Assembly: GCA_040954595.2 (NCBI GenBank)
Contig: CM082592.2
Location: 10,093,677-10,157,676 of the forward strand
Reading direction: 5' to 3'
Source: Balanoglossus misakiensis
Lineage: Eukaryota > Animalia > Hemichordata
Length of the DNA stretch: 64,000 bases
The translations under genes and the position numbers were made by a program. The first letter of the stretch is position 1; the number at the start of each line of letters is the position of its first letter. Under the pieces are notes generated by a model, which saw only the letters and a list, made by a program, of their open reading frames with translations, did not search any database and was not told where the DNA came from. Positions 21,171 through 33,700 of the stretch are shown here, one piece after another.

Positions 21171-22331
21171 TAAGTACATGTGTACCATGCATGATGCTTA
21201 CTTTGTGAAAGAGGTGTATTAACATTGTAACTCAAAGAGCAGAAGGTGCAGTGAAATGTTTCACGACCGCATCCTTTTCAGCAGTTCATATGCTTGAACA
21301 GTTATATTCATGACATTACGTCACCCATGACAATAGCGTAAATATTTACCTACTTGAAGCTATGCGGATAAAATCATTAGTGACCAGATAATTAACTAGT
21401 GAACAAAACGAAAATATTCCGATTTATCTTATTCTATAATAAAAGTCGTCAACTTATTTACTACGATACTTGGTGTACATAACAGCTGGACACCAACAAA
21501 CTTCGCTGTGGACAACTTGTCAACAATAACAATGGCCCCACACTTGTACTGAGTATATCAGCATGATGTTTGGAGTAGAACAAGAAATTGCATGTGGTAC
21601 ACAAAAAGAAAATAAAGTCAAATGTTACAGCTAATGTCAACCCCTCTTTCTTTATATTATTTTCACCCAAAGATATTTTACAGTTACACTACTGAGGATG
21701 TTTCTAGTGTGTAAATTGATAACACTAGTCATATGATGTACTGTGCATGACTTGGCAGCTTGTTATCAAAATGCTACCATAGCAACAAAGCTGGCAAACA
21801 GTACAGTACTTGACCTATCTTAATAGTCAGAAGATAACATTTCCCCCAAAGTTGACGCTTAAATGTACATTACAATAATTTGCAGATGAACTGCAGGTTA
21901 GTGTCAACACTAATTTATTGATGAATTTTCTTAATTCACAGGTGCTGTTATTCAAGATGTGAATTATAAATGTCCAAAGGTTAAAATTTGCATTCCGGAG
22001 TTAGTTATCTTAACAGTCGTTTGGAACCGGAACTCTTGTTTGACCCATGAGGTGTAACGCTTTTTCTCAAATCCCACTGGTTTTCAAGATCAGCCGAAAC
22101 ACTCAGCCAGGACAACTTTTTTCCAAAGTTGTTACGTACTCCTCAAAGTGTTGCCAATCAAGGAAGGCTTTCTACCACACGCTAGGGAGTCATCAATCAT
22201 TCCAACCAAACAGAAGGTTCAGAGTTCTCTCATTACAGTCAGGGGTTAACGTTACTACCGGTAACCAGTCAGCAGTTTTCACAGGAAAACACTGGCGTGC
22301 CCTTCCATACGTTGGACATACTTTCAGTGCA

Positions 22332-25300
22332 ATGGGGATATGCAGCTCCAAGGATGGTAAGCATATGGGTTGTTAATTTTTTTTTGATCTGTAAACAAGT
22401 GCCGCGTTTCATTGCTGTGATGTTACTATAGTGGTTTCGTGGGATATCAAACTGGTACGATAGTTCTGCCACCAACTGTAAGATAACCCCTTGGTGCCAG
22501 TGTATACCTTTTAGTGTCTTACTAGGAACAGTTCAACACTGTTTTATTATCAAGAAGTATGCTCTTTCATTTCATTGACGAATGATAACCATTCTGTGGC
22601 TTCTCTACCCGCTGTAGCTAACAACACCCTCGCTCACACAAATGGCAACGCAGCTTCCACGGCAAGCAATGGCAAAGGTAACATGAAAAAGTCTGCTTTC
22701 AATCACGACCACCCCCCCCCCCCTAAATGTTGAGTTGCATGTTGCATAACACACATACTACACTGTCTGTCCCTTTCTCTCTATGCTTCCAGCCAGGAAG
22801 TGAAACCAGTGCATGGAACATTTAACCTCTTATGCAATAAACTTGATATCTGATTGGTTAACCCACTTAATGTATTCATTAACCTTTGAATCTTATTGGC
22901 CAGTCACTTTAATGTGGTTAAGATATTTATATACACATACAGTAATACACTGTCCAGGGTGCTGGTACTGGTTACTGGATGCATGTTGATGACTCGGGGC
23001 TAACAGTGGTCTGATATATCGTACATAACTTTTCAAATTTAAAAGGATTGCTTTTTGTGTGCCTGTGATCTCAACTGTAAGTTAACTGTGGTAGGTTGTC
23101 AGCCCATTGTTGTGTGTTTTTGATGTGTTCATTTGCCTGTCTGGTAACAAATTTATTCTTTTTTATTTTTACAACATAATCAGTATTATATGCATGTCTG
23201 CTTTAATAGAAAGTGTTATATAATGCACATTTTGTTATCGTGCTGTTCATGTTATTGTGTGTGTTTGTCGGCCAAAATGTCTTGTAAAAAAGAACTAGGA
23301 TCCATGGAACAAGACCAGAAAAACAATCACTTCAGGCAATCAATACACACGTAGTTAGAGTGTGATAAAAAGTAATAGCACGTTGTTTGCATTGGTGCAT
23401 TGTAACAGTTACATTTAATGTCTATTTTGACTTCCAAATCATTGTTTATAAGTCAAAAAAGTTGAATTAATTACCAATGTCGTTCTGACCTTGTAGCCAT
23501 GTGCTGAAATGTGCCAGACATAGAAACAGCAATTTCTTGTATATTGATGTCGTTTGGCCTTTAGTGTTACTTTGGTCCATAAGCTGCCAGAATGTATATT
23601 TAGCTATTTAATTAATGCAAATCCCTTTTAATGGAATGTAGCCATATGTGGTGTTTGTGGTAGAATTTCTCTAAGGAAAATATTTTGTATTTTCTGGGCG
23701 CCAGCATTTTTAATTCCAAGGAATCTTACATACAGGAATCAGGAATGTGAAGTTCCACCTCATTTTAAAAACCCCATGGATTGAATTAATGGATATTGTA
23801 ACATGTGGAGTGACCGTGTGAAAACCTTATACATGTAGCTGTAATTTTAGATTTGTCATATTCATAATATAATGCATGATATCTTCATTCCATCATGGTG
23901 TCTGCAATTTTCCCACTAATAACTGGTCACACTCATTGCTCCATAGAGCACGGCATTGCAGCCATGCCGAAACCAGAGAAGGTGGTCCCAGTAGAAGCAG
24001 TGGTCTGTAAAGTAAATGATATGAAGGATGGCGAGTAAGTAACTCTGTATGCAATCATTGAAACCAAACAGTCATAACTGTGACAACACAAAGAAAAATT
24101 GTCGGGAATGTTTCTTGTATAGTGTTGAACTTTTTCTATGAGTGTCCATGTGTTCATGTCTGTGCGTGTGTATATATACAAAACATAGAATTCATTGTTT
24201 GCAAGTACTGATTGATAGTGATACTGAAGGAAAGGAAGTTTCAAATTCCAACATTACTACACGATGTAACTTACACAGGAAATGTGTAACAGAAGAAGAC
24301 TAAAAATAAAGAACAAACCTGAGTAATTTCCTGACATCAGTAAGAAATGGATTACTAGTACTCTCATATGTTGGTACCCCAAAAAATTTATTAAAAATAT
24401 GGCAATACATTTACTTTCATTTCTTCCGAACGTATTTCTGTTAAAATTTGTTGTACTTATCCGTAGGATGCGAGAAGTTGACGTTGGTCCTGGCAAAGCT
24501 CTTTTAATCAAAGACATGGGAGCCTACAGTGCAATTGGTCACAAATGTACACACTATGGTGCACCACTTGTCAAAGGTATTGTCATTTATCATTGGTTTC
24601 AGATATAAGACTTCCCAGTTTAAAATTAGCATATGGGGCGGGGGATGGTTGGTATACTCACAGAGTGAAGCAAATGTGCTGAGTTGATGACATTGTCATT
24701 TTTTTGCAGGTGTACTCTGCAATGGAAGAGTGCGTTGTCCATGGCATGGTGCATGCTTCAACACACAGACTGGTGACATAGAGGACTTCCCTGGCTTAGA
24801 TGGTGTACAGAAGTTTGAGGTGGGTGTCAGTATTTACACGAAGGTACCAGTGACATGGTATTGACTTCCTTTCTGAATAACGGTACAGATTTCACACCAC
24901 TGAATCATTTGGCAAGTTTGAATTCAAACTCAGAAAATTGACGTGACATTTTCATGGATTTTGAATGTTACAGGTGGACATCAAAGATGATAATGTCATT
25001 GTGAAAACTCACAAGAAGGTAAGTTTATCATCATCTTAGAAAGAGAAATTGTGGCTTTTTGTAACTTGTAAATCTTATTTATTCATTTATGGAATCAAAG
25101 TAAGTTTTGTTTATGACAATGCAACCAGTGACTTCTGAAAGTTCATTTTTGTGATGAAATTTTCATTTTGATAACTTTTTTTCGCCAGGCATTGGAGAAG
25201 ACCAGAAGGATCAAAGAAATGGGCAGCAGATCTCCTGATGAGGATGCCAATGTTGTTCTTGTTGGTGGAGGTAATAATAAAAACAGTTCTGAGTTTTGTT

Positions 25301-28300
25301 TCATGTGATCATGGCCATGCAGTGAAAGTTTTGGTTGTTATATTGTAACAGTGTCATGTCATGTTATGTTCTGTCATGTTTTATTTGTTGTGCCAGGTGC
25401 TGCTTCCACTGTTTGTGCTGAAACACTGCGACAGGAAGGATTCAAAGGAAGGATTGTCATAGCAACCAAGGAAAAACATCTCCCCTATGATAGACCTAAA
25501 CTTAGTAAGGTAAGGAACCAAAATTGGTGAGACTGTGAGATGTACATGGTACCGGTAGGTGATGATGATGATGATGATGATGTCGGCTTTGACCACCTTT
25601 ATTTAGGCATTGGACAGTTCAGCTGCCGATATCGCACTCAGAGACCAGAACTTCTACTCCGTTTATGACATCGAAGTGTTGACAGAAAGAGAAGCTGTCT
25701 CCGTGGATACTGTACTGAATGCTGTCACCTTCCAAAATGGAGAAAGCATCAACTATGACCATCTTCTCATTGCTACAGGTGGAAGGTAATGTTATGTATT
25801 TGATGAAATTAGAAAGCAATATCATTAGGTAAAAGTTCACTTAGGTTTTGCTGACGCCCTTGTATGCTTATTTTTTCCAATCTCCATTCATGTTGGTATC
25901 CACAATTCCGATAAATCTGATTCTGAATCCATGTCTGTCTTGACCTCTTCTCATTTGCATACCACACGCAGACCCAGAGTACTTCCTATCCCAGGTCACG
26001 ATCTTCAGAATGTCTGCCTTCTGCGAACCCCTGATGATGCCAATGCCATTGCGTCAAATGCAAAGGGCAAACAGGTTGTCATTGTCGGCACGTCATTCAT
26101 AGGTAAGACTAGACAGTTCAAGAAGAAGATGTTGAGCGTAAAGTGTAGTTTGTATTTCCAAGACAACAAATATCGCTAAACATTGTTGCGCTTCTGAAAT
26201 CATGGTAATGCTATCACGAGAAGTGATGTACGCGTACAACCCTGTCATGTGAAGAATTCATTGCATGGTTTTGACGTTTCTCGACTGTTACAGGAATGGA
26301 AGTTGGGGCGTACCTCTCTGATAAGGCTGCTAGCATTTCTGCGATAGGTTTAGAAAAGACTCCCTTTGAACTTGCAGTTGGCCCACAAGTTGGAGGCGCC
26401 CTCCAGAGGGTACTGAACATTTACTTTTGTTTTATAGATATAAATTGTGCAAGAATATACATGTAGTGATTGAATTTCTGTGTATTGTGTGACTTAGGCA
26501 TGGAAGTGGCCAGCTATCTAGTTGACAAAGCCAATCATGTCACAGCCATTGGTCGCGGTAACACCGCATTTCAAGCATCTTTAGGAGAAAATGTAGGACT
26601 AGTACTTCAGAGGGTGAGGCTGTTTTCACTGTCGTGTCATGTCACCTCATGTCATGCATGGCCTGCCTGCTTGAACTGGTTGTCGTTTTATTATTTGCTG
26701 ATGTGTAGATTGCTTGCAATATACAGTTTTGGCTAACAAAGTTTTATTTTTACCTTCATTCTAACATTCATTTTACAATAGATCTAACTCTTCTTGCAAC
26801 TTCCGGGTTGAATGCTGTAACCAACGAATTCATTTTCTTTATAAAGGCGTTTTTGCTATCACTAATGCATTGCATGCTAGGTGTCTGCTATCTCAGACTA
26901 CAATATCTCTTGAACTGAAGCACTTGTGCCTCACCAAGTCGAATAAATCAGGGTATCTCACTAAATCAAGCTGTGTACTACATAGCCTTGACTTGGGTGA
27001 CAACCCTTATAGACAATAATCTCTATCCATGAATGCTGTCATCGATGTCATTTAGACTTAGGTATCTGCCGCTAATGCCTGGATACTAGAACATTTACAT
27101 TTTATCTTTAGGACACCTGCCTGCATGTTCTTGCTGTTTTAGTGTGCATATTTGCACCGATCTTTTCCTCGTGCTTTACTTGTTGGCATGATTAAAGCCA
27201 GGCACTACACAATGCATCAGCATGTTACAGTATCTGCATTTCTGTTTAGATGCTGGAAGAAAAGAATGTGAAATTCTTCATGAACAACAGTGCTAAGGCA
27301 TTCCATGGAGAAAACGGCAAACTCAAATCCGTGGAATTGGCGTCTGGAGAGACTCTGCCAGCTGACCTTTGTGTTGTCGGTGCTGGGGTCATTCCCACCA
27401 CAGAGTTCCTGAAAGAGAGTGGCCTCACCATGAATGCAAGAAACCAACTCTCAGTTGATAAGGTAACATTTGCATTTATAGCAAGGAAACAAACTAACCA
27501 TCCCTGTTTTAGGTACATGTATTGCATGCACAAATGCTCCAAAAATTTCAGGATAATATTGGTATACTAAGTTGGTAGAATACTTGACTGAAACAGTGTC
27601 CACACAAGAAATGAAAGTTAAAAATTTATTTCTGCCTTTTTGCAGTTCATGAGGACAAGTAAGTCCAACGTGTATGCAGCAGGTGACATCGTTGAGTTTC
27701 CTCTGACAATGCTGAACGATGAAAGAGTTAATATTCAACATTGGCAGATTGCTCATATGCATGGTAAGTACAGTGCACCTGTCTGAGACAGACACCAGTG
27801 GACTGAGAAAGTTTGTTTGTTTGCTGGTTGCTCATTAAGTGTATACACATTTACCTCCCTTCCCCTTTCTCTCTCTCAGGTCGTATTGCCGCTCTGAATA
27901 TGCTGGGTCAAGACACAGAAGTGAACACAGTTCCATATTTCTGGACAATGATGTTGGGCAAGAGTCTCCGATTTACAGGTTTGTTCAGGTTCTCATTAGA
28001 TTGTCGATGTTTCACTTCATCCAACTGTAGATTTTTAGTTGTTGTCTGCTACTTGTGAATTCATTCAGAAAGGCTTTGTCATTTATTTACAGGATACAAT
28101 GTTGGCTATGATGATGTTGTCATTGAAGGAAACCCAGAAGAATTACAGTTTGTTGCGTATTACACCAGGTCAGTAGTTGAAACATCTGTTATTGTTTTAG
28201 TCTGCAAGATGATGCTAGAACAAATCTAATCTAATAAGCGATACATCTATATATCTGAATTTCAATGTCAAAGGATCAAAGCTAATGAAAGTCATGTGTT

Positions 28301-28566
28301 TTGCAGGGGAGACAATGTGGTGGCTGTGGCTAGTATGAATTCTGATCCAGCAGTCTCTCAAGCTGCAGAGATGTTCCAAGCAGGAAAGGAAATCAGAAAA
28401 TCTGAGCTGCAGTAAGTCATATACTTTATGGAATTCACTAGTACCTCATTGTATACAACTTTTGAATTTACGTTTCTAGTAAATGTATATTGTGTGAATA
28501 ACTCTCAAAACGTTCTCCTTTCTGTCCCACAGGGGTGACAAGAATTACTGGAAGAGCCTTCTGTAG
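22332..28566 (+). CDS. AIFM3: Apoptosis-inducing factor 3 (Rieske 2Fe-2S plus FAD/NAD(P)H oxidoreductase); an in-frame upstream ATG at 22047 would add 95 aa
   Basis: MGICSSK start; Rieske motifs CTHYGAPL and CPWHGACF; FAD motif VLVGGGAAS; [10 protein letters not shown]; LIATGG; NAD(P)H motif [11 protein letters not shown]; VYAAGD; [15 protein letters not shown]; VPYFWT; ends [10 protein letters not shown] at 28566. All junctions read are GT-AG and in frame. Confidence 0.95.
26294..26409 (+). other. AIFM3: AIFM3 mutually exclusive exon A ([39 protein letters not shown])
   Basis: 116 nt, from acag| to |gtactg. Phase 1 in, phase 0 out; in frame with the flanking exons ending at 26102 and starting at 27250. 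Confidence 0.88.
26498..26613 (+). other. AIFM3: AIFM3 mutually exclusive exon B ([39 protein letters not shown])
   Basis: 116 nt, from ttag| to |gtgagg. Same phases as exon A and aligns to it without gaps. Confidence 0.88.
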
Positions 28567-29234: not shown

Positions 29235-30090
29235 CTAATAATCTCCCCATCTCTTTGTAATATTCAAATGTTCAAAATGTTTGTCCATAGTTTTATGTTC
29301 CGGCAGTGAGTGAATCCTGGCTGCTCTCAATTTGGCCTCTTCTGCATCTTTTCTGACACCTTCAATTTGGTGGTCTTCAATCTGTTCTGCCTGGAAATGG
29401 AGAAATAACAGAGATTGTATAGACAATTGTATCACAATGAAAACTGACTGGGACTTTTACACTTGAGGCAATAATAGTAGACTTACATGACTCAGGAACG
29501 GTCGACTCAACAGCCTATCATTCTCAGCTTCTCTTTCCAGTCTATTTTGTAAATTTCTCAACATAAATGTGGTGATAATACGGGGCCTACGGTGTTTTCT
29601 GCAAAGAGATGAAGACTTCTGTTAATCCAATGTCCATCTACTTCATATAATTCCTCCGAACCGTCTGCTAACAACCCCCCCCCTAAAAATCCTCCACCCT
29701 CCCCGGAAATCAATGGTTCTCCCTAGCCCTACCACCCCGCCCCCTTCATACCCAACAGCATGCTAGAGAGAGAGTACAGTGGTAGGACTACAGACTCGCA
29801 GCAAACGCACTGCAAGATATTGGACACGCGAAATTGCCAAGGCTATATAATAGAGTAATGATTCCAATGTGTTTTTGTCCTGTGTATAATACACAGAACC
29901 ATCAGTCACAGTCATGTTCAGAAAATGCATTATCCTCTCTTGGAATTTAGGATGTGGATGGTGGCCATCTTCAGCAACAGCATAACACCCATGGTAAGTA
30001 ATGAACCCGTGATGCTTACCCTGTCCACTGCAGACCTGGTACTTTGCGACCCCGTGGCCTGTGTGCCAATAACACTCTTGTCAACCACAT
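29235..30090 (-). CDS. MRPL57: Mitochondrial large ribosomal subunit protein mL63
   Basis: Three exons: MWLTRVLLAHRPRGRKVPGLQWTG-KHRRPRIITTFMLRNLQNRLEREAENDRLLSRPFLSH-AEQ...LPEHKTMDKHFEHLNITKRWGDY*. Matches the mL63 motifs PGxQWxGKHRRPR, ExEN and HLNxTKxW. Confidence 0.92.
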
Positions 30091-30762
30091 GACTTTATGT
30101 TATTGCTGCTACACTGAAGTCTTCAAACAATCACCTCTTGATTCACAAATCAAAGCATGCCTTCTGCTGTGTACGACGAACAGACATGTGACGTGTCTGA
30201 GCGCCATCAGTGGTCAATAATAAGCGGGGCTTTCGTTTTTCTCTCTATAAGAGACATATCTGTTTTTGATAGTTTATTCGTAAACATGAACGCACTTAAA
30301 CTTGCACATACATGTACTAGTAAACTATCAGCTAAATAATTCGATCAGGCGTACCTGGCCGGATCATAATCATGATAATTGTTAGCACTATGCGAGATTC
30401 ATTGGGCGTGGCACCGTCAGCGTCGCATCGACACGTCGCGCGTCGTTCCCGGTAGGAATGGAACTTCGAGCTTCGGAGCAGCTAGTCACGTGGTTCACCG
30501 TGCAAAATAGAACAAGAACAAGCTAAGGCGACGCGTTGTAAACTAAAGAGTACGTATACGACGAAAGGCATTGATGGAAACCTTGTGATATAAAAGTTAT
30601 ATCACTTTTGAAAGTGATGAAATTATTCGGGGTTGGACGACATCACATCAGAGTGAAGTATCTGTCGGGATAAGCCGAAGAAACTGACTGCGGATCGGAA
30701 GATTACAGGAGATACATGTACCAAGTTTTCTTATATGGTATTTGTTGAGAATTAACACAGCT

Positions 30763-33700
30763 ATGACCAGACGAACAACGTATACCTACGAAGAAAAACA
30801 TTTTCCGTACGCGTCTACGGAGGTGGAGGAGTGTCGACGCCACGGGTACGTGCTGTCGGACAGGAATTTGGGAAGTGGAGCCTACGCGAAAGTAAAACTA
30901 GCACACGTCATGGAAAACAAGTTGGACAAAAATGCAAAGTTAGCGTTTGATTTGAAAAAGAAAGAACATAACATGGTAAGTAAGAGTCTTGTATTTTTAA
31001 TAACATCTGACTTTTGTTTTTATATAGAAAAAGCACAATCTGACAACACAGAGCATGGGCACCAGTCTTGAAGTTTTATACTCTGGAACTTTTAGGCCCT
31101 AACTTTTTTTAAATGTATGTGTTGATTTTGTTTTTCTTAAAGGTCGCCGTCAAAATCATTTCAAAGAAAGAAGCGCCTTCAGAATACATACACAAATTTC
31201 TACCCAGAGAAATAGATGCGATGAAGATCACACACAGGCATGGAAATTTGGTAAGAGAAAATGTTCAGTGAAGATTTCTGCATTTGTAAAGATTATATGC
31301 TTATCCTCCATACAGTTTTGCCAATGCATCTGTAATACAATATTATTAATGATTTCATTTTTAATCTCTCTAGATCCAGCTGTATGACACTTTCTATAGC
31401 GACCTCAGGGTCTACCTTGTGTTGGAGTTTGCAGCTGGGGGAGACCTGTTGGAATTTATCAACAACACCTCACTGAAGAATGGACTTGGAGGAATTGGTG
31501 AAGAGATGTCCAGAAGACTCTTCAAGCAGTTGGTGTCCGGAATTGCTCACTGTCATCAGCTCAATGTGGTTCATAGGTGAGAGACTGTGATGTCATCATG
31601 TTATTGTGGGTCAAATGTGATTTGCTGGGTAAAGGTTCTTAGGTCAGGGTGCAGTGTGTTGTCAGTTTCTTTCAAAGCAAGTATATTTAGAATGTTTCAT
31701 ACATCACTTACACTTCATAAGTTTATATCTTCTTTTTAATTTCCAGGGATTTGAAATGTGAAAATATCTTATTGGATGAGTACAATAATGTTAAAATAAC
31801 AGGTAAGTGACTATGTTTCTTCTTGTCCAAGTTTTGAACTATAGTTTGAAAAATAAAACCATGAAAACCATGTGAACCAGGGTTAAGACTCAGGAATGAA
31901 CTTCATCATAGTGGATTGACATGAGATGTATCTTTTTGTGGTTCTCTCGACAGATTTTGGATTTGCCGCAAAAGTTCCTAACAACAACAAATCACATCTT
32001 ATGAAAACATTTTGTGGATCCTATGCCTATGCAGCGCCAGAAATATTAAATGCTACACATTATGATGGGAAACTTGCTGACATTTGGAGCCTGTAAGTCC
32101 TATATCTATATATTTAATATGTATTATTGGATTTTGATAACACGAAGGAGGACCTACAAATTCACAATCCAATGAAATTATTTCATTTTCATCTATAATG
32201 ATCTTGCATCCTGAATATATATGCTTCACAGACATTGAAATTCTATCTCATTTTTTTTTACAGAGGTGTGATTCTGTTTGCAATGGTGAATGGCAAACTT
32301 CCATTCAATGACAACAACCTGAAGACCTTGTTGGAACAGACGAAGCAAAAACTTGACTTCAAGCCGTGGATAACACAAGGTGAGTTTGTCGGTTCCCATT
32401 CGGTAATGCTGTTGGTTTGAAACCCAGACTGAACCATTTATAGGCAAGAGCAGGAGTACATTTTCGACATTTTTATTTCTGATTTCTTTCAGAGTGTCAA
32501 GAACTTATACGCAAGTTGCTCCGGGTAAAGCCACTGGCAAGGCCAAAAATCAATGACATCTTACGACATTCTTGGATTACTCGAGGCGCTCCTAAGAGTC
32601 CAAGACTCAGGGTATGAAAGTGTATTCATTTTCCGATGCTTTAGTTTGAATGATAGGCCCATATTTGATGATGAGGGAGTTTATATGAAGAATCATTTTT
32701 CATGGGATGTTCATGATGTCTTTGTTTGTCATTTCCACAGAGATTCCTTGAGTGTGCCGATGTGTGCAGCATATCCCGGGAGGATATGAGTATAGAGGAC
32801 ATTGAAGATGAGATAGAGGAATTTCAGTCCATTCCGAATGCTGTGATCTCCAGGAAAACACCATCTTTGAGAATGTACAAGGCACCAGGAGCCAGTCGGA
32901 GAATTACACTATCATCAGGTAGGGGCGGCAGGCAAATTTACACATTCAGAGATTTTAGAGTCATGGCTTTCCAAGTGTTATGATTTTTAAGACAGCCATG
33001 TTACATAAATGTCTGCCATGTAACCTCATCAGCTATTTTTCTTGTTCCACCAGTCAAGCGGCCAAACACTGGCGCACACTGCCAAGATCTTGTGTTGAAT
33101 GGCGAAAATGCTCTGAGAAATGCACCAAACTCAAGTTCAACTGCAGAGGGCGCTCCAGCACAGGCTGGGGCCACAGTGGCACAGCCAAAGCAAAAACCGA
33201 GGTACACCGCGTCGAAGCTACTTCAGCAGAAGAAAAAGAAAGCCAATGAAATCCGTGAGAAGAAACTTCTGGATGCCCATGCGGCTGGTGAGAGCTTGAC
33301 TGCCAAGAATGTTTACAAGCAAACAAAAGTGACATCCACAGCCACACAGGGCAGCAGCAAAGAAAAGAGGAAGGAGAAAAAGCGACAAGAAATGCGACGA
33401 AGGCTTCTTGGAATACCAATGTTGTATGGAGATTACAAAGACTACGTGAAACCAAGGAGTTACGAGAAGCCCTCACTGTTCCTGGGACCGTTGCAGGGAC
33501 TCGGAGCCTTGTCACAGAAGGGGAACCTAGACCACGCGGAGGCTCGTCTGGACATGCCAAACATCGGCGCAGGCGTACCACTACCTGCACTGCCGCCTGC
33601 CCTGAAGGAGAAATTGAAGGATGAGGCTGTTACCATGTCATTCCGGTACAAATATTCCAAAGAAAGGAAGCTGGAGACCTCCAAGGATGCGACGGCAAAG

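Follow-up and report, generated by a model that had tools for sequence, protein, structure and literature searches.

An AIFM3-like gene of the acorn worm Balanoglossus misakiensis carries a pair of tandem-duplicated, mutually exclusive exons, A and B, an arrangement confirmed here at the level of the genomic sequence. The pair swaps a helix-strand-loop-helix segment of the NAD(P)H-binding fold, and splicing probably sets the cofactor preference of the enzyme, the A isoform being predicted to favour NADH and the B isoform to accept or prefer NADPH. This reading is based on the homology of the swapped loop to known NAD(P)H determinants. The gene lies in a window of 64,000 nucleotides (contig CM082592.2 of assembly GCA_040954595.2), the whole stretch of DNA that was analysed. 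All positions are counted from the first letter of the window (Table 1).

Judged by both its domains and its orthology, the gene is an AIFM3-like Rieske flavoreductase. Pfam domain calls, made on the Ptychodera flava orthologue and on two exons of the window gene, gave Rieske, Pyr_redox_2 and Reductase_C. Outside the swapped segment, the protein is 92% identical to the AIFM3-like protein of P. flava, 85% identical to that of Glandiceps and 75% identical to that of Saccoglossus. A tree built without the swapped segment places the window protein as sister to P. flava, inside the acorn-worm clade.

Table 1. Features of the AIFM3-like gene of B. misakiensis (positions in the window).
Feature	Position	Strand	Description
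In-frame N-terminal extension	22047..22331	+	95 codons, 12 Arg/Lys, zero Asp/Glu; aligns with the N-terminus of P. flava X1-X4
AIFM3-like coding region	22332..28566	+	protein of 567 aa from 17 exons per mRNA; domains: Rieske, FAD/NAD(P)H-binding, reductase C-terminal
Upstream exon	25972..26102	+	3' end encodes the GTSFI(G) motif of the NAD(P)H Rossmann fold
Introns flanking and between the exons	26103..27249	+	TGCATG at 26262, 26655, 26871 and 27122
Exon A	26294..26409	+	acidic loop G-L-E, codons 26347-26355; second Glu codon 26368-26370
Intron separating exons A and B	26410..26497	+	88 nt, shortest of 17 modelled introns
Exon B	26498..26613	+	basic loop G-R-G, codons 26551-26559
Downstream exon	27250..27462	+	Pyr_redox_2

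The first-pass annotation had described two gap-free homologous exons of 116 nt, 88 nt apart and with GT-AG sites, of which only one can be used per mRNA. Both points held. An AG precedes and a GT trails each exon. The two exons have equal length and phase; in a gap-free alignment they are identical at 62 of 116 bases and at 20 of 39 residues. Their mismatches are distributed 15/11/27 over the three codon positions, third positions being the richest. Within the window, tblastn matches exon A to exon B with an E value of 1.8e-9, the next-best match being at 1.9 or worse. No third copy of the exons was found in the window, and neither were comparable duplicates of the 14 other exons of testable length, for which one weak match was obtained (E 0.035). 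In an 18-exon model, inclusion of A alone or of B alone gives a protein of 567 residues. Joining both exons leads to A-W-K-W-P-A-I followed by a stop (360 aa), and skipping both leads to a TAA after 329 aa.

Conservation of the homologous pair in other acorn worms is borne out by P. flava and Glandiceps, which have both exon types. We examined 21 clusters of relatives, in which the isoforms are annotation models and absence from an annotation is not absence from the genome. Isoforms that swap exactly the 39-residue segment occur in seven clusters, two from acorn worms and five from molluscs. The acorn worms are P. flava (6 A and 5 B, n=11), retrieved with exon B alone (isoform X2), and Glandiceps (2 A and 1 B, n=3). 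The molluscs are Littorina (4 and 4, n=8), Ruditapes (7 and 1, n=8), Crassostrea virginica (3 and 1, n=4 full-length models, ten short members without the motif being left out), Pecten maximus (1 and 1, n=2) and Dreissena (6 and 1, n=7). Exon A is identical to P. flava X1 at 37/39 residues, to Glandiceps at 32/39 and to Saccoglossus at 25/39. Exon B is identical to P. flava X2 at 33/39 residues and to Glandiceps X2 at 29/39. The P. flava annotation contains two almost identical AIFM3-like loci, and both have A and B isoforms; these twin loci are either haplotypes or the result of a recent gene duplication.

A GenBank model of Dreissena passes from the acidic exon to the Arg exon, which it reads in a wrong frame. 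All 38 residues that could be compared are compatible with this read-through (38/38), a level matched in at most 5 of 1000 shuffles. The out-of-frame model thus indicates that the Dreissena exons are arranged in tandem, in the same order and phase as in the window. A single form was found in 14 of the 21 clusters, including two of Saccoglossus with one A-type model each, three of echinoderms, Lingula, Priapulus, Lineus, Daphnia, portunid crabs and Ciona. One form only was seen in amphioxus (15 of 25 members listed) and in Acropora (15 of 28 listed), and no swapped segment was seen among the 15 members listed of the 57 from sharks and rays. A scan of 80 metagenome loci, 75 of which have the segment and most of which are transcripts and microbial or fungal-type genes, gave no tandem pair. 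When representatives were searched with exon B by HMMER, three repetitive proteins devoid of AIFM3 domains were obtained and set aside.

It is most improbable that the second exon reflects chance similarity or an error of assembly or annotation. This explanation is refuted by the orthologous A and B isoforms of P. flava and Glandiceps. In a tree of the 39 columns of the segment, the A exons and the B exons of acorn worms each form a starred clade, so that A and B each have an orthologue of their own in two further genera. It follows from these clades that the duplication predates the Ptychodera/Glandiceps split. The limited base identity between the two exons also shows that exon B is not a collapsed allele.

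The swapped segment had been assigned to the helix and the second strand that follow the GxxxxG motif, with the cofactor loop after the strand. The motif is GTSFIG in this gene, and the predicted structure of the P. flava A isoform agrees with the assignment. The model (pLDDT 95.6) contains a helix (279-288), a strand (294-298), a loop (299-305) and a second helix (306-322). The closest folds are those of putidaredoxin reductase, MDHAR, BphA4 and AIF. The register of the loop was examined through the bit-score differences between A- and B-type P. flava sequences against six BphA4 loop mutants, whose identities were taken from PDB titles. With G-L-E and G-R-G placed at BphA4 175-177 (Glu175-Thr176-Gln177), the rms deviation is 0.18 bits; it is 2.7 bits or more for the 54 other registers. 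On these scores, the register is fixed and the swapped segment holds the loop equal to BphA4 175-177. By the same fit, exon B carries the Arg-Gly of the BphA4 T176R/Q177G mutants. BphA4 mutants with x-R-G loops, C-R-G among them, were reportedly made NADPH-specific by Nishizawa in 2014. Querying the PDB with single exons gave no useful match, and a plasmid tblastn for a BphA4 relative gave none.

In FdR9, Glu164 is the equivalent of BphA4 Glu175; it binds the adenosine ribose and is proposed to repel the NADP phosphate (PMC7397466, available excerpt). FdR9 Glu164 aligns with loop position 1, which is the Gly after the strand in exons A and B. The canonical NAD-type acid, where the second strand ends (position 1), is therefore missing from the window pair, both exons having Gly there. 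Among the exon pairs, an Asp or Glu at position 1 is found only in the mollusc Asp exon. The proposed opposition of an acidic exon A to an Arg-bearing exon B thus stands at the discriminating loop, with G-L-E against G-R-G, but it does not extend to the canonical acidic position. The acid claimed for exon A does exist, although it is found two residues after the canonical site, which is Gly. The Arg claimed for exon B is present in the window, where G-R-G has the NADP-type pattern of no acid and Arg at position 2, but it does not generalize to the S-G-S of Glandiceps exon B.

The position of the exon A acid can be compared with that of Glu196 in rice MDHAR. This residue hydrogen-bonds the NAD ribose, and the wild-type enzyme binds NAD 20-fold better than NADP; in the E196A mutant, the affinity for NADP is increased 16-fold and NAD is still favoured about 3-fold (PMC5031999, available excerpt). 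Between wild-type MDHAR and E196A, the observed A/B score shift is 2.8 bits. The shift predicted at the exon A Glu is 3.7 bits, the largest of all, and that at the next-best site (Pro/Ala) is 2.3 bits, which is similar; this register is obtained from scores and is indirect. The Glu of exon A, at loop position 3, likely equals MDHAR Glu196, a demonstrated NAD determinant. The conversion of E. coli glutathione reductase to NAD includes V197E and R198M (PMC5817062, available excerpt), at sites that would correspond to loop positions 1 and 2. The second acid of exon A sits at the position of Pdr Glu186. An acid at this position does not track the exon type, as three mollusc Arg exons have Glu there too.

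The same contrast recurs in every pair. In the window and in the seven clusters (8/8 pairs), an acid occupies loop position 1 or 3 in one exon and is absent from these positions in its partner. The acid is at position 3 in acorn worms (G-L-E, 4/4 species) and at position 1 in molluscs (D-[IL]-[IV]). Six of the eight non-acidic exons have Arg at position 2, the exceptions being Glandiceps B and the second exon of Littorina (S-T-S). In the whole AIFM3 family, the loop is not binary: of 169 distinct segments in a census, 61 lack acid and base alike and 21 combine the two (two are mis-registered). Distant metagenome homologues commonly have G-[MLI]-E and A-P-E/D loops. G-R-S or G-R-G loops are found in cnidarians, echinoderms, Lingula, Owenia and Daphnia. 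AIFM3 of sharks and fish mostly has G-[IV]-E, one ray AIFM3 has G-S-G, and fish AIFM4 is non-acidic. Vertebrates, with an acidic AIFM3 and a non-acidic fish AIFM4, thus keep both loop types as separate genes.

These data bear on another explanation, which we regard as unlikely though deserving of attention, in which the pair is genuine and under selection, yet the cofactor is the same for both isoforms. The exons would then tune NADH affinity or turnover, charge-transfer stability, oligomer state or partner binding. A and B differ at 19 of 39 residues, many of them outside the loop, so that selection may keep other properties. The heterogeneity of the loop across the family and the two pairs out of eight that have no Arg also point in this direction. 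Against it, the acorn-worm and mollusc pairs share the acid/no-acid contrast at known NAD determinants, reached at different positions, and exon B matches the engineered x-R-G loop of BphA4. We favour a difference in cofactor preference.

The origin of the mollusc pairs was considered using the same 39 columns. In the free tree, exon A joins vertebrate AIFM3 (94/80) and exon B joins echinoderms (90/77). AU tests rejected none of the groupings of acorn-worm A with B (p 0.29), of the mollusc pair (p 0.14) or of acorn-worm A with the mollusc Asp exon (p 0.17). Because the position of the acid differs and sister groups have a single form, we lean towards independent origins of the acorn-worm and mollusc duplications.

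Several observations could suggest that exon A alone works and that exon B, a minor duplicate or one under relaxed constraint, is heading for loss. The B isoform type is in the minority in most clusters, both single models of Saccoglossus (2/2) are A-type and the Arg is lost from Glandiceps B. Compared with P. flava, exon B differs at 6/39 residues and the rest of the protein at 41/526. However, Fisher tests of this excess in rate did not reach significance (p 0.12 and 0.11), and exon B is open, gap-free and well matched by its Glandiceps counterpart. Its C-terminal half is nearer to the sea-urchin segment than is that of exon A (Lytechinus, 13 vs 9 of 23 residues). Moreover, full-length proteins of the Arg type are encoded on contigs of about 2 kb that group with molluscs (P0024 and P0195). 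Decay of exon B is accordingly improbable in our view.

Under the favoured explanation, two isoforms with distinct cofactor sites would be produced. The Glu of exon A would bind the 2'-OH of the adenosine ribose and repel a 2'-phosphate, as does MDHAR Glu196. In exon B, the loss of the acid together with the gain of Arg would make room for the 2'-phosphate and allow its binding. The B isoform may be dual-specific rather than strictly NADPH-specific. Exclusivity would likely be ensured by the reading frame and nonsense-mediated decay, possibly aided by the 88-nt intron. After double inclusion, the premature stop would lie several introns before the end of the gene and would expose the mRNA to nonsense-mediated decay.

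Exclusion of the Dscam type relies on pairing between docking-site and selector RNAs, with conserved competing intronic helices. Fifteen short inverted pairs were found at the introns of the exon pair, in the window sequence alone, and no stable fold was detected in the 88-nt intron (z +1.41). In steric exclusion of the OGDH type, the branch point is no more than about 50 nt away from the upstream donor (PMC7969005, available excerpt), and a zone free of AG comes after it. Candidate branch adenines of the 88-nt intron are near this limit, at 7-34 nt and 60-64 nt from the donor. The one at 14 nt has a U-rich tract after it, but three AGs precede the acceptor. A 23-nt repeat, 78% identical, is found just after exon A (26415-26437) and in the intron after exon B (27089-27111). 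It resembles a strong splice acceptor, and use of the first copy would lead to a stop; the resemblance is possibly due to chance.

The introns around the pair are also rich in TGCATG, which we take to be the RBFOX motif. Four copies occur in 915 nt (Poisson p 0.003 relative to the window rate, in a post hoc comparison). Nine of the ten TGCATG elements of the gene are in introns adjoining alternative exons (p 0.025 given intron lengths), five of them in the intron after a 60-nt exon (22618-22677). This enrichment hints at tissue control of the RBFOX type. The 60-nt exon matches an 18-residue segment that is absent from P. flava X3/X4 and from Glandiceps, and is therefore likely a cassette exon.

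Three candidate starts are found at 22047-22356 and 23947-24034. They correspond to the basic, acid-free 95-aa extension, to M-G-I-C-S-S and to M-P-K-P. We infer that the 95-codon extension resembles a mitochondrial presequence; the M-G-I-C-S-S start is presumably a myristoylation-like motif. P. flava models pair the first and third starts with both loop exons, so that compartment and cofactor loop may be combined. A wider proposal, which is possible but on balance doubtful, is that splicing in the AIFM3 family is a true NADH-versus-NADPH switch. Both forms would have been gained three times, as acorn-worm exons, as mollusc exons and as the vertebrate AIFM3/AIFM4 genes, and, through alternative N-termini, the redox pools of different compartments would be served by a single gene.

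Two other genes were noted downstream in the window. A short coding exon on the minus strand (29235-29400) has the C-terminal sequence H-L-N-I-T-K-R-W-G-D-Y, in which we see a resemblance to the C-terminus of the mitoribosomal protein MRPL57. A multi-exon protein kinase gene (Pkinase) is on the plus strand (30760-33000) and is, we assume, like testis-specific serine kinases.

Energy production draws on the NADH pool, biosynthesis and antioxidant defence on the NADPH pool, and the enzymes that use the two are usually distinct in a cell. If true, a natural NADH/NADPH splice switch would put mutually exclusive exons to a new use and would be nature's version of a classic exercise in protein engineering. 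AIFM3 is an enzyme conserved in animals, and a pair of isoforms with 19 residue differences would also offer a way into its function; the favoured explanation predicts that vertebrate AIFM3 and AIFM4 differ in cofactor use. In a literature search, with subscription journals outside its coverage, neither the AIFM3 exon pair nor any switch between NAD and NADP based on exons was found to be described. The search also found no enzyme assay of any AIFM3 isoform and no AIFM3 cofactor or substrate data. In the available excerpts of PMC8431184 and PMC9420475, AIFM3 is the subject of general oxidoreductase and localisation statements only.

Among metabolic enzymes, tandem-duplicated mutually exclusive exons have been described in PKM (bioRxiv 10.1101/292813, available excerpt) and in OGDH, with exons 4a/4b (PMC7969005, available excerpt). 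As in the window, neighbouring homologous exons of equal length are used one per mRNA and alter a functional site. KHK, ACOX1 and CYP4F3 are further metabolic enzymes with such exons and share these features. Unlike the window pair, the exons of these five enzymes change allostery, calcium sensitivity or substrate range. We know of no exon pair of a metabolic enzyme that exchanges an NAD/NADP-discriminating loop. The duplicated exon 10 of oyster alternative oxidase also belongs to an invertebrate redox enzyme, and its choice is stress-regulated; it is, however, a terminal exon of a quinol oxidase in which, as far as the available excerpt describes, pyridine nucleotide is not involved (PMC5589949).

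The closest parallels for the loop itself are BphA4 mutants, rice MDHAR and the vertebrate AIFM3/AIFM4 paralogues. The BphA4 E175X/T176R/Q177G mutants (PDB 4H4V, 4H4X, 4H4Z) have the same fold (TM 0.87-0.88 by target length) and are changed at the same three positions. They are engineered bacterial proteins, and wild-type BphA4 has an acid at position 1, where the window exons have Gly. Rice MDHAR resembles exon A in that Glu196, likely at position 3, binds the ribose 2'-O of NAD and disfavours NADP. It is, in contrast to the window protein, a plant enzyme without a Rieske domain, and removal of the acid relaxed its preference without reversing it (PMC5031999, available excerpt). Within the AIFM3 family, fish AIFM3/AIFM4 provide a counterpart of the exon pair, in that loops of both kinds occur in fish, acidic (G-I-E, E-L-E) as well as non-acidic (G-S-S, G-K-S). 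The difference is that vertebrates carry the two loops on separate genes, AIFM3 and AIFM4, instead of on alternative exons.
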